From assembly GCF_053078305.1 (NCBI RefSeq), contig NZ_CP166879.1: a stretch of 64,000 nucleotides of DNA; one strand, 5' to 3'. This document shows, piece after piece, positions 40,604-44,268 of the stretch. The stretch's first letter is position 1. Each line of letters begins with the position of its first letter. The position numbers and the translations under genes were made by a program. The notes under the pieces are model-generated. The model saw only the letters and a list, made by a program, of their open reading frames with translations. It ran no database searches and had not been told where the DNA came from.

Positions 40604-40783
40604 TATTTATTGGTGAGAACTACGTTCCATAGCAGGAGTTCATCAACACGGTTGAAAGGCCATTCCTGCAGTACGCTCAGGATATGGCGCAGATCCGCCT
40701 CCGGATTGCTGATCAGCCCGTACAGTAGCGCACCACGCTCTCCACCGTGATCGTTGTCGAAGAACATGTAGATGATATGACCT
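40604..40783 (-). mobile_element. 3' fragment of an IS66-family transposase gene
   Basis: Translation ...FFDNDHGGERGALLYGLISNPEADLRHILSVLQEWPFNRVDELLLWN resembles the conserved C-terminus of IS66-family TnpC. Confidence 0.45.
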
Positions 40784-40830
40784 TTATATACTCACTATAG
40801 CATTGGTGGGATATTCCAGAGGAGGTCATC

Positions 40831-41607
40831 ATGCATTCGGAAAATATTGCGGCTTACGTCGGGCTGGATGTGCATAAAGAAACGTTGGAGGTTGCTATTG
40901 CTGCACCTGAACGGCTTGGCGAAGTTCATTATTATGGTACGATTAACAACGAAGCCCAGGCTGTACGTCGATTATTTCAGAAATTGCAGGGACTTTACGG
41001 AAACATTCTTTCCTGCTATGAGGCTGGCCCCTGTGGTTTTGGGCTGTATCATCAACTCACAGCGATGAATATAAAATGCCAGGTTATTGCCCCTTCCCGG
41101 ATACCAAAATCACCGACAGACAGAATCAAAAATGATCATCGGGACGCAATTTCTCTCGCCAGGTTACTGCGGGCTGGAGAACTTACCCCTGCCTGGATCC
41201 CTGACCTGACTCATGAAGCTATGCGGGATCTAATCAGAGCCCGTGCAGCAGCTAAACGAGACAGCAGAGTTGCCCGACAGCGAATTCTGAGCATGCTATT
41301 GCGAACAGACAAACATTATGCAGGAAAGCACTGGACAGGAAAACACCGAACCTGGTTAGCTAATCAATCATTTAGTCAGCCATCTCAACAGATTGCTTTT
41401 CAGCACTATTGTCAGAGTCTGGAGCAGATTGAAGATCGCATACAGAAAATTAATGGTCATACGGCTGTTATCACATTTGATCCCGATATTGAGATGTTTC
41501 GCAGTGAGTTTACAGGCCTGAATGGCGGAGCTGATTTTTACGCGCACAGCGTAGAGGAGTTTAAGCGCAAAGGGATTAAGTCACTTGAAATTGAACCGGC
41601 CCCTTGA
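40831..41607 (+). mobile_element. IS110/IS1111-family transposase gene, probably 3'-truncated
   Basis: 258-aa ORF beginning MHSENIAAYVGLDVHKETLEVAIA, typical of the IS110-family DEDD N-terminal domain; ends where the IS3-family element starts. Confidence 0.55.
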
Positions 41608-41611
41608 AACG

Positions 41612-44268
41612 CCAGACAGTGGATGTATCTTAAAATAAGAGATAGGCTTGGATATATGTCTAACACTAGTGCTAATTTTGAGATGACTGGAATTTTGCTG
41701 GGGCAGGAGCTTCGTAAACGTAAAACTCCTCAGGAAAAAATCGCCATTATTCAGCAGACAATGGAACCCGGTATGACGGTGTCCCATGTGGCGCGTTTGC
41801 ATGGTATTCAGCCCAGCCTGTTGTTTAAGTGGAAAAAACAATATCTGGAAGGAAGTCTCACTGCTGTTGCTGCCGGAGAGGATGTCGTTCCTGCCTCAGA
41901 ACTGGCTGCCGCTATAAAACAAATAAAAGAGTTACAGCGCTTGCTGGGTAAGAAATCTATGGTCCCCACCATTTTTGCAACACTGATTTTGATTGATGTT
42001 GGCTTGCCTAAATCTATCCGGCGTCATTATGGGCATGGATGCCCGCGCCTCGATGAGTTCCGCACCTGATGAGCCCAAAAAACCATCCGGCTTCAGTGAG
42101 CCATTTTCTTGCTGAGGCTTTTCATCAGGCCGATATGCCGTTCATGTCATCAATAATCAGTCTTCGCAAAACCAGATTGGGAACTACTTTAATTCATGAT
42201 TAACCTGCCAGCCAGACTGGCGCCATCGTTACCTTTCGAACACAGTCTGCTGTGTTGTGATTGCCCACGCTATCCGGGCTAATTTGTTGGCCAGTGCGCA
42301 ACATACTACGCTGGAGTGTTTTCTTGCCAACAACGCCCTGACCCAATCCGCCAACCTTCCTGACTGATTCTCGATTCTCTGAATAAAGGATCTTGCGCAC
42401 TGAACGAGTAACCGTCGCAGATTTTTATCTCCACGTTTACTTATCCCTAAAAGTGTATTTTTACCACCTGTGCTGTACTGCCGGGGTACCAGACCGGTTG
42501 AAGCAGCAAAGTCCCGACTGCAGCTATATTGTTTACCGTCTCCCAGCTGCGATGACAGTACGCTGGCGGTTATCGGACCAATACCGGGTATTGTCTGAAG
42601 ACGTTGTCCTACCTCATCACGACTCAGTTCCTGCTCCAGTGCGATTTCAAGCTCGGTGATCTGTCCGACAAGATAAATATAATGGGCATGTAAGCGCATC
42701 AGTAACTGCGCCAGATAGGGAGGAAGTTCGTTCTCTGCAAGTACTGTTGAAAGTCGTTTTACCACTGCGACTCCTGTCGGCATACTGATGCCAAATTCCA
42801 GCAAAAAAGCATGCATCTGATTGGTCGTTTTGACTTTATCACTGACCAATGATTCCCTGGCCCGGTGAAGCGCCCGCATGGCCTGCTGAGCTTCTGTTCG
42901 TGGTTGCACAAATCGCATGGAGGGACGAGATGCCGCTTCGCATATGGCTTCTGCATCGACAAAATCGTTCTTGTTGCTCTTAACAAAAGGGCGAACGAAC
43001 TGCGGAGAAATCAATTTTGCTTCATGACCTAAATCAGCAATCCGGCGAGCCATAAAATGAGCTCCGGCGCAGGCTTCCATCACAACGGTAGACGAGGCAC
43101 AGCCTGCCAGAAACTCAATAAGTTTGGTACGGGTAAACTTTTTACGCAGCAATACCTTGCCTGACTTATCTTGGCAGTGAATGTGAAAGGAATGCTTGCC
43201 AAGATCTATACCAATAAGCGTAATGTTTTGCATGATGGTCTTCTCCATGAAAGAAAAACACTCTACTAGGGTACAGCTCACAGGGTGGTGGGGACCATCT
43301 CATTAACCATGGAAGTTGAGATCCTCAAAGAAGCGGTGGAGTATGGTCAGTCGCGAAAATGGATAGCGCATGCGCCCTTGTTGCCAACGGACAAGGAATA
43401 ACCCTGGTAAGCCGTATTCTGGGCGTGTCGCGTGCGCAACTGGCACAACGGATGAAAACATCTGGTAATAAGCCGAATAAACGTCGTCGCAGATGTGATG
43501 AGGCTGCGGATGCGGAAGTGTTAGCACGTATCCTTGATATCATCAGCGATATGCCGACATATGGCTATCGTCGTGTCTGGGCCATTCTCAGACGACAGTC
43601 CCGTAACAAAGGAGTGCCGTTCGTGAATGCAAAGCGCGTTTATCGGATAATGAGCGAAAATAACCTGTTGTTGTTACATGACAAACCTTCACGACCGCAG
43701 CGGGAACATAAAGGCCGAATATCGGTGAAGGAAAGCGACCAGCGCTGGTGTTCTGATGGCTTTGAGTTCGGTTGTGATGATGGCGCAAAACTGCGTGTCA
43801 CGTTCGCACTGGACTGTTGCGATCGTGAAGCCATAGACTGGGCCGCAAGCACGGGAGGTTATGACAAAGCAACGGTGCAGGATGTCATGTTAGGAGCAAT
43901 AGAAAAACGCTTTGGCGATAAAGGAGCGGAACGGCCAATCCAGTGGCTGACTGATAACGGTTCGGCTTATACAGCTCATGAAACACGGCAGTTCGCCAGA
44001 GAGTTGAATCTGGAGCCCTGCACGACGGCAGTCAGTAGCCCTCAGAGCAATGGAATGGCAGAAAGGTTTGTGAAAACGATGAAAGAAGACTACATCGCGT
44101 TCATGCCGAAACCGAATGTAAGAACGGCATTGCATAACCTTGCAGTGGCGATCGAGCATTACAATGAACCCCATCCGCATAGTGCGTTAGGTTATCTCTC
44201 ACCAAGGGAATATCGACGTCTGCGGGTAACGTCAACTTAAGATACAACGACTGTCTGAATATCGTGGG
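41612..44268 (+). mobile_element. IS3-family (IS2-group-like) element with orfA and orfB; orfA interrupted by a nested IS110-family element
   Basis: orfA from about 41683 ([41 protein letters not shown]...ELQRLLGKK) resumes at about 43309 ([24 protein letters not shown]); orfB 43359-44240 has the DDE integrase core ([10 protein letters not shown]...WLTDNGSAY...[12 protein letters not shown]). Confidence 0.75.
41963..43308 (-). mobile_element. IS110-family element (about 1.35 kb) inserted inside the IS3-family orfA
   Basis: Transposase ORF 42229-43281 (probable start MQNITLIGIDLGKHSF); boundaries inferred from where orfA homology breaks and resumes; flanked by inverted GGTCCCCACC / GGTGGGGACC. 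Confidence 0.7.

Follow-up and report, generated by a model that had tools for sequence, protein, structure and literature searches.

Here we describe a locus at positions 40578-46276 of a 64,000-nucleotide stretch of E. coli DNA (the window; contig NZ_CP166879.1, assembly GCF_053078305.1), in which two RNA-guided insertion sequences (IS) of the IS110/IS1111 type sit precisely inside two other insertion sequences. We identified the components from open reading frame (ORF) lists, domain scans and sequence comparisons with the complete genomes and plasmids of E. coli. The locus is very probably a decayed pile-up of mobile elements in the chromosome that was built stepwise, through insertion of an IS66-family element, of ISEc45, of an IS2-like element of the IS3 family and then of a 1350-bp element of the IS1111 group. 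The identities behind these assignments range from 97 to 99.9% over hundreds to thousands of bases, and no chance-level evidence enters them. All of the parts belong to known families, the principle of RNA-guided targeting is already published, and the structure is ordinary and already understood: in dozens of complete genomes, the Prokaryotic Genome Annotation Pipeline (PGAP) labels an 'IS110 family RNA-guided transposase' inside an 'IS3 family transposase'.

The key comparison is with E. coli STEC639 (CP061233; L005 in our set), which is 99.8% identical to the window across 12 kb around the locus, insertion differences aside. STEC639 lacks the 1350-bp insert and is otherwise 99.4-99.9% identical at this locus over 14 kb. 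Between the same flanks it carries an uninterrupted IS2-like element that reads ...GGGTAAGAAA|ACCATGGAAGTTGAG... at the insertion point (AAGAAA|ACCATGG; empty-site sequence AAGAAAACCATGG). In the window, the left junction reads ...GGGTAAGAAA-TCTATGGTCCCCACCA... (AAGAAA-TCTATGG) and the right junction reads ...TGGTGGGGACCATCTCATTA-ACCATGGAAGTTGAG..., and comparison of the empty site with both shows no base gained or lost and no target-site duplication. The presence of the uninterrupted element in STEC639 means that the split element is not a single composite unit. A preliminary description, made from the sequence of the window, had likewise argued for nested insertions over contiguous parts of one composite, with at least four successive insertions, and the empty site bears it out. 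That description had the IS3-family orfA stop after ...QRLLGKK near 41962 and resume in frame near 43309, around some 1.35 kb with an IS110-family transposase on the opposite strand; the arrangement is as described, with the junctions now placed at 41955 and 43306, the insert measured at 1350 bp and its transposase found intact at 334 amino acids (aa).

A repeated ATGG at the two junctions (41959-41962 and 43309-43312) was initially considered as a possible 4-bp duplication. We dropped this reading because the empty site puts the true boundaries 7 and 4 bp away; the left ATGG is the outer part of the insert's own subterminal repeat and resembles the target by chance. The preliminary description had pointed to target-site duplications as a check on the nesting, and none is found, either at the IS1111-type insert or at the ends of the IS2-like element (GAAAT/GTTTT). 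For the insert, that check was moot, because the IS1111 group makes no target-site duplication.

The insert has the sequence hallmarks of the IS1111 group. Read in its own orientation, it consists of TAATGAG and the subterminal repeat ATGGTCCCCACCA at the left end and the subterminal repeat TGGTGGGGACCAT and AGA at the right end. The repeats match perfectly over 13 of 13 bp (41959-41971 and 43286-43298). Outside them, the element extends by the 7-bp TAATGAG on the left (43299-43305, reverse complement) and by the 3-bp AGA on the right (41956-41958, reverse complement); both extensions are fixed by the STEC639 empty site and identical in three relatives. The transposase gene is flanked by 72 nt of non-coding sequence upstream and 273 nt downstream (41956-42228). 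The IS1111 group has been defined by 11-13-bp subterminal repeats, 7-bp left and 3-bp right extensions, a longer non-coding region downstream of the transposase gene (tnp) and no duplication (PMC11187229). The end structure, the non-coding lengths and the absent duplication of the insert fit this definition, and the insert is thus a member of the IS1111 group of the IS110 family.

The transposase matches PF01548 (9e-21, residues 7-146), PF02371 (3e-23, residues 210-289) and NF033542, 'IS110 family RNA-guided transposase' (349.6 bits, cutoff 140). Its amino acid identity is 80% to an ISSfl8-family protein and 72% to IS4321 and IS1328. Near-identical copies of the whole element (99.7-99.9%) are present in two further records, L001 and L002. 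PGAP names both the IS2-like and the IS1111-type element at family level only, and exact-peptide look-ups of the elements against the sequence supplement of PMC11187229 returned no identical entry. A match to a named ISfinder entry would take at least 95% amino acid or 90% nucleotide identity. Because the closest relative found is only 80% identical in amino acid sequence, the 1350-bp element may be without an ISfinder name.

Its target recognition can be read from a comparison of relatives. We aligned the 3' non-coding region of the window element with those of ISSfl8 (E. coli STEC17-190, L006), a third element (L007) and an IS4321-like element (L010) that adjoins a Tn3-family fragment. The four regions share a highly conserved scaffold with only two variable blocks, which flank an invariant hairpin, (U/A)GGCUCA(C/U)UGAAGCCG. 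The fold predicted for the window element and the three relatives places the two blocks, as guides, on opposite sides of one internal loop. In the window element, this predicted module would be made up of an outer stem (CCUGAUGA/UCAUCAGG), a short second stem, the internal loop, which is closed by CCUGAUGA/UCAUCAGG and GCC/GGC, and a terminal hairpin, GGCU-CACUGA-AGCC (42088-42103).

Both blocks co-vary with the target. The 3' block has a fixed register, covering the last 5 nt of the left flank and the first 3 nt of the right flank, and reads ATGGT|TTT in the window element, GGGGA|TTT in ISSfl8, GGGTC|TTT in the L007 element and ATATT|TTC in the IS4321-like element. It matches its own target at 8 of 8 positions in all four elements and non-cognate targets at no more than 6 of 8. 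The 5' blocks make 6-9 contiguous pairs with their own targets: that of ISSfl8 is the reverse complement of A|TTTCATCT, that of the IS4321-like element is the reverse complement of T|TTCCGTTT, and in the L007 element the pairing with the element's own right flank runs over 6 contiguous positions. In the window element, the 5' block is GCAAGAAAA; it makes 7 contiguous pairs with the window target (T|TTTCTT; full version CCATGGTTTTCTTAC), 8 with the version found on pAA plasmids (...CTTGC) and 9 with the sequence of IS2 proper (CCATCGTTTTCTTGC). In the seekRNA arrangement published for IS1111 elements, the segment that matches the top strand comes first (5'), the one that matches the bottom strand follows, and the matches overlap at the insertion point (PMC11187229). 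The two putative guide segments of the window element fit this arrangement, with the 5' guide 1 nt out of register.

Outside the guide module and downstream of the predicted seekRNA core, a conserved GGAUAGAUUU (42010-42019, minus strand) reproduces the sequence across the right junction, namely the final 5 nt of the right end followed by the initial 3 nt of the right flank. Its counterpart in the IS4321-like element reads ..AUUC, and the right flank of that element starts TTC. On this single co-variation, GGAUAGAUUU may be a second guide that recognizes the junction. A donor-binding candidate, AUAAUGA, which matches 7 nt of the circle junction, is not conserved in the relatives and was dropped as a chance match. 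A sigma-70-like site (TTGGCA, 16 nt, TAGTAT; 42303-42330, minus strand) falls within tnp near its 3' end, ~75 nt before the stop codon, and could drive the non-coding RNA from the integrated copy.

These features, together with published work on relatives, suggest how the element would move. A DEDD recombinase would be guided by a small RNA expressed from the 273-nt region downstream of its gene. Within the internal loop of this RNA, the 5' segment would pair with the top strand of the target and the 3' segment with the bottom strand, with an overlap between them at the insertion point. Excision would release the element as a circle with the predicted junction ...GGGGACCATAGA|TAATGAGATGGTCCCC..., where the abutted ends would form a promoter; they read TTGCAA, 17 nt, GATAAT, and in sequence resemble the junction promoter described for the IS1111 family (PMC11187229). 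The circle would then integrate wherever the guides recognize CCATGGT|TTTCTT, a motif conserved in the coding sequence of IS2-group orfA (G-K-K-T-M-E). On the same grounds, the element may be active at present.

The same insertion recurs well beyond the window. Among complete E. coli genomes, 64 carry the IS2-like::IS1111-type arrangement, in 65 records, and the 60 listed of these 65 records all show near-full-length matches in which both IS2-like flanks are collinear with the query, at the same site and in the same orientation. The contexts include large plasmids of Shiga toxin-producing E. coli (STEC), pAA plasmids, where the arrangement lies beside aggR and which include the O104:H4 outbreak plasmid, and one chromosome, near espI and selC. 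The host arms differ in sequence and form at least three variants, whose right flanks read TTTCTTACCC, TTCTTGCCC and TTTCTTTCCC, and the recurrence is therefore one of site-specific, RNA-guided insertion rather than of a single inherited composite. In L011 (NZ_CP012498.1, 1865-4475), the nesting goes one level further: an IS3-family element with a programmed frameshift interrupts the IS1111-type element in its 3' non-coding region, and the IS2-like element that surrounds both has one arm from each of two sequence variants.

IS2 proper offers a near-cognate site that appears to be unused. The copy in STEC639 reads CCATCGT|TTTCTTGC at orfA codons ~86-95, which matches the 5' guide at 9 of 9 positions and the 3' guide at 7 of 8, the one mismatch being a synonymous change of Thr from ACC to ACG. 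Although IS2 is ubiquitous, the 60 listed copies of the IS1111-type element include none in IS2 proper. It is conceivable, although on balance we doubt it, that the 1350-bp element is all of the following at once: a formally undescribed IS1111 member, programmed against the G-K-K-T-M-E (CCATGGT|TTTCTT) motif of IS2-group orfA, and a dedicated 'IS-in-IS' hyperparasite that inactivates the transposase of its host. If this were true, a single synonymous change (ACC to ACG) would suffice to make IS2 immune, and the 1-nt slip of the 5' guide would imply more tolerance in guide geometry than current seekRNA and bridge-RNA models assume. The unused IS2 site is a ready-made specificity test for work on IS110/IS1111 recombinases, and the window element, ISSfl8, the L007 element and the IS4321-like element form a natural re-programming series on one conserved scaffold. 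The site, filled in the window strain and empty in STEC639, is also a recent lineage-level marker.

Several observations weigh against the reading of the locus given so far. The register offset of the 5' guide is seen in the window element only, as the guides of the three relatives examined are in register, and this guide also has one mismatch when paired with the window-type target (A in place of G) and none with the pAA-type target or with IS2. An Rfam scan of 38000-48000 at E<=1 returned no family, and the RNA assignment therefore rests on comparison and literature. The sigma-70-like site is the only promoter-like site upstream of the RNA, and the promoter-scan counts are at chance level. 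When the non-coding region of ISEc45 was searched for guides to its IS66 target, only 6-mers and a match at the junction of right end and flank were found. A few single-nucleotide polymorphisms (SNPs) in the right arm of the IS2-like element are shared with other composite copies and not with STEC639, which hints at import, and a comparison of two genomes cannot fix whether the window lineage gained the insert or STEC639 lost it by excision.

The hint of import corresponds to an alternative in which another IS2-like::IS1111-type composite, such as a plasmid-borne one, donated the IS1111-type element through homologous recombination or gene conversion, with the arms serving as homology. We consider this unlikely. 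Suitable donors exist, as near-identical composites (98.9-99.3% over 2.7 kb) are found on large STEC plasmids and one chromosome, and L011 has arms from two different IS2-like variants. In the SNP comparison, MAFFT misaligned the empty copy across the insert when filled and empty copies were combined, and arm positions alone were used. Among the five right-arm differences between the window and STEC639, the window has at 43710 and 44016 the allele common to the two composite copies examined, and at 43694 an allele that it shares with L002 only; further right, at 44069 and 44169, the window agrees with STEC639. However, there are only four informative SNPs, all unpolarized, whereas site-specific RNA-guided insertion fully accounts for the recurrence at one site, and the at least three diverged IS2-like hosts need independent insertions anyway.

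Somewhat less probable again is the reverse direction, in which the window is ancestral and STEC639 lost the IS1111-type element by precise excision, so that the insertion would not be the most recent event. IS1111-family elements do excise as circles, Partridge and Hall are said to have detected a precisely reconstituted target for IS4321 in 2003, and STEC639 has had a later event of its own, an IS2 insertion with a CGCGC duplication. Against this, uninterrupted IS2-like copies are far commoner than interrupted ones (424 versus 65 records). Neither import nor excision would alter the conclusion that the structure is nested. That 41592-44277 is one known composite, or a classical insertion with a 4-bp ATGG duplication, is refuted: ATGG does stand at both junctions and the arrangement does recur in 64 genomes, but the empty site AAGAAA|ACCATGG assigns TCT and the left ATGG to the insert and leaves nothing duplicated, each of the two parts has a complete machinery and ends of its own, and the IS2-like part occurs alone in more than 400 records.

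Taken together, these observations support a stepwise model in which an IS66-family element would first have inserted at a site downstream of a hypT-like regulator gene, and ISEc45, of the IS110 family, would then have entered its tnpC site-specifically. A deletion or rearrangement would have removed ISEc45 past base 672 and joined the remainder to the start of a hicB-like gene. The IS2-like element would have come to lie between the hicB-like fragment and a serine protease autotransporter (SPATE) gene, the 3' half of which would have been lost. Finally, the 1350-bp element would have inserted antisense into orfA of the IS2-like element, between AAGAAA and ACCATGG, and would have inactivated its host without duplication. 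Because the site is empty in STEC639, this insertion is most simply the latest event. The locus thus records at least four insertions (IS66; ISEc45 into IS66; IS2-like; IS1111-type into IS2-like) and, in addition, at least two breakpoints left by deletion or rearrangement, located at 41443/41444 and at the ends of the IS2-like element. The features are collected in Table 1.

Table 1. Features of the locus, in window coordinates
Feature	Positions	Strand	Remarks
IS66-family element, 3' terminal fragment	40578-40771	-	tnpC end and end proximal to the inverted repeat
ISEc45 (IS110 family), first 672 bp	40772-41443	+	left end with subterminal repeat ATGACCTTT; transposase codons 1-204, coding sequence starts at 40831
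hicB-like antitoxin gene, orphan 5' fragment	41444-41591	+	148 bp, ~49 codons, KINGHTAVITFDPDIEMFR...
IS2-like element (IS3 family, IS2 group), whole, including insert	41592-44277	+	1336 bp without the insert
IS2-like element, left arm	41592-41955	+	left inverted repeat (TGAACCGGCCCCTTGAAACGCCAGACAG...) and orfA codons 1-100 (41656-41955, ending ...QRLLGKK)
IS1111-group (IS110 family) element, complete	41956-43305	-	1350 bp; splits IS2-like orfA after ...LLGKK
Predicted seekRNA/bridge-RNA target-binding module	42060-42137	-	inside the 273-nt 3' non-coding region
Predicted 3' guide, AUGGUUUU	42079-42086	-	identical to top strand ATGGT|TTT; complementary to bottom strand across the insertion point
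Predicted 5' guide, GCAAGAAAA	42104-42112	-	complementary to target top strand T|TTTCTT(A/G)C, right flank
Transposase gene of the IS1111-group element	42229-43233	-	334 aa, intact; DEDD/RuvC-like N-terminal and Transposase_20 C-terminal domain
IS2-like element, right arm	43306-44277	+	rest of orfA, orfB (rve integrase core; listed ORF 43359-44240), right inverted repeat (...GGGTCAAGGACA)
SPATE pseudogene	44278-46276	-	N-terminal ~665 codons in three frame-shifted pieces

At the left of the locus, the preliminary description had recognized an IS66 fragment and a truncated IS110-family copy, and both are real. The IS66 fragment begins at about 40578, rather than at 40604 as first given, and the outermost ~5 bp of its inverted repeat (IR) have diverged or are missing. 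Its first 129 bp (40578-40706) are 89-93% identical to the 3' ends of IS66-family transposases in ~4000 E. coli genomes, and 40578-40767 aligns at 81% to an uninterrupted IS66 copy in L012. In place of tnpA-tnpB-tnpC with terminal IRs, only the last ~190 bp is present, at 81-92% identity to IS66-family copies, and this is a remnant, not an element.

The truncated copy is ISEc45. It is 97.6% identical over 737 bp to a copy in E. coli Nissle 1917 that PGAP annotates as 'IS110-like element ISEc45 family transposase', has PF01548 over residues 10-158, and differs at 2 positions of its N-terminus from the ISEc45 protein excerpt in the supplement of PMC11187229. The homology ends at 41443, and the right ~770 bp, including the non-coding region, is absent, leaving 672 of ~1444 bp. 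In E. coli Nissle 1917 and DETEC-S589, a complete ISEc45 splits IS66 tnpC with the junction seen in the window. The IS66 fragment and the truncated IS110 copy are therefore the remnant of one earlier nested pair, and this pair is widespread in E. coli.

ISEc45 is joined to a gene fragment that the preliminary description did not mention, and which we call hicB-like from a reading of its peptide. Its single match in complete E. coli genomes is in 2013C-3033 (93% identity), beside a RelE/HTH toxin-antitoxin pair, and that homolog is itself cut by an IS66 end, GTAAGCG. In STEC639, IS2 proper occupies the fragment (6546-7874 of that record) with the 5-bp CGCGC duplication, at a position equivalent to 41541-41545 of the window, 50 bp to the left. 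The STEC639 record, CP061233, is a 1.0-Mb 'plasmid' with chromosomal-type genes and is probably a mislabelled piece of chromosome. Also new relative to the preliminary description is ORF 40831-41607 (258 aa), an in-frame chimera of the ISEc45 transposase N-terminus, the hicB-like fragment and the left IR of the IS2-like element, and this ORF is spurious.

The IS2-like host can be reconstructed in full. Excising 41956-43305 in silico yields an element of 1336 bp in which orfA encodes 131 aa and the orfB frame holds an ORF of 306 aa. Domain scans place HTH_Tnp_1 in orfA and rve, rve_3 and HTH_21 in orfB, the IS3-family layout of a helix-turn-helix (HTH) orfA and a DDE rve orfB in overlapping -1 frames. 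The reconstructed element has a gapless full-length match to more than 400 E. coli records (424), at up to 99.5%; the query for this count was a near-identical reconstruction that differed at two junction bases. Relative to the uninterrupted in-situ copy in STEC639, 5 of 1336 positions differ. The ends, which are the limits of matches in many genomes, are imperfect terminal IRs with TG...CA termini (left IR, TGAACCGGCCCC...; right IR, reverse complement, TGTCCTTGACCC...), and the IR cores, 41613-41633 and 44237-44257, pair over 21 nt with 90% complementarity.

IS2 makes a 5-bp target duplication. The flanks of the IS2-like copy, GAAAT and GTTTT, show no such duplication, a point absent from the preliminary description, and the copy has therefore mediated or suffered an adjacent deletion. 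The copy is genuine, and its surroundings were rearranged after insertion, either by adjacent deletion or by inter-copy recombination.

The right end of the IS2-like element truncates the SPATE gene, as had been noted earlier, although at 44277 rather than 44268. The remnant carries ESPR and Peptidase_S6 on 45431-46276 and a PIC/HAP1 beta-solenoid on 44269-44979, and shares 72-75% nucleotide identity with autotransporter genes annotated in E. coli. The right IR of the IS2-like element cuts it off at the 3' end, and its reading frame is broken twice. The C-terminal ~630 aa and the beta-barrel are absent; of the C-terminal 879 aa of EspI, residues 5-243 alone align, and a search for the 3' half elsewhere in the window did not find it. 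In place of a complete SPATE gene, 44278-46276 is a pseudogene. At this locus, neither the IS2-like element nor the SPATE gene is functional, and in a correct annotation the 258-aa chimera and the three pieces of the SPATE reading frame would count as debris, not as genes.

Some neighbouring features deserve mention. About 190 bp upstream of the SPATE pseudogene start, a 51-bp remnant (46466-46516) has 88% identity to sequence from the left-end region of an IS66-family copy (L013, 3210-3259) and is a further IS scar at the border of the island. Immediately to the left of the locus, 35527-40507 holds a rare cluster of aspA, a dcuC-like transporter gene, an amino-acid racemase gene and the hypT-like LysR gene. 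A near search of complete RefSeq E. coli gave no match to this cluster, and the nearest plasmid copies besides STEC639 are ~89% identical. Further right, a very long ORF (55798-62871, minus strand; 2357 aa) has an ORF of 1844 aa on the opposite strand.

Each layer of the locus has a counterpart among known systems. The IS66::ISEc45 pair of Nissle 1917 and many other E. coli shares the junction GAAGAACAT.. / ATGATATGACCTTT with the window, but the window keeps only 672 bp of ISEc45 and ~190 bp of IS66, the rest being deleted. The IS2-like host resembles IS2 in its orfA of ~120-130 aa with HTH, its DDE rve orfB in the -1 frame, its ~40-bp imperfect IRs, its length of ~1.33 kb and the orfA target motif that the two have in common. 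Unlike a copy of IS2, it has only ~70% nucleotide identity to that element; PGAP gives it no specific name, and short pieces of it resemble ISEc48. At the target itself, IS2 proper has ACG in place of ACC.

Among relatives of the insert, IS4321 and IS5075 belong to the same IS1111 group, have a 334-aa transposase that is 72% identical, and likewise enter another mobile element in one orientation and without duplication. In the IS4321-like L010 copy, TAATGAG and the 13-bp repeat on the left and the repeat and AGA on the right can be seen directly, together with the same 3' non-coding RNA scaffold. IS4321 and IS5075 are 1327 bp long, compared to 1350 bp for the window element, and their guides and target differ, as they use the terminal inverted repeats of Tn21/Tn3-family transposons rather than the coding sequence of IS2-group orfA. 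The closest of the relatives found is ISSfl8, so labelled by PGAP. Its 3' non-coding end is 87% identical to that of the window element over the first ~230 nt, and its ends and RNA scaffold are identical in kind, whereas its target is GGGGA|TTTCATCT and both guides have changed to match. Over the whole element, the nucleotide identity is only ~73%, and the window element is therefore a different IS by the usual ISfinder convention.

The predicted RNA of the window element can also be likened to the bridge RNA of IS621, reportedly described by Durrant and colleagues in 2024. A further parallel is the seekRNA of ISEc11 (Siddiquee et al. 2024, PMC11187229). ISEc11 too has its non-coding region downstream of tnp, two short guides that overlap at the insertion point with the top-strand match 5' of the bottom-strand match, and abutted ends that can form a junction promoter. 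It differs in being 1443 bp long, with a 339-aa transposase and the target GTGAAAATACTG. In both systems, guides have been re-programmed naturally between relatives: the re-direction between ISEc11 and ISXne4 (PMC11187229) is paralleled by the guide changes among the window element, ISSfl8, the L007 element and the IS4321-like element.

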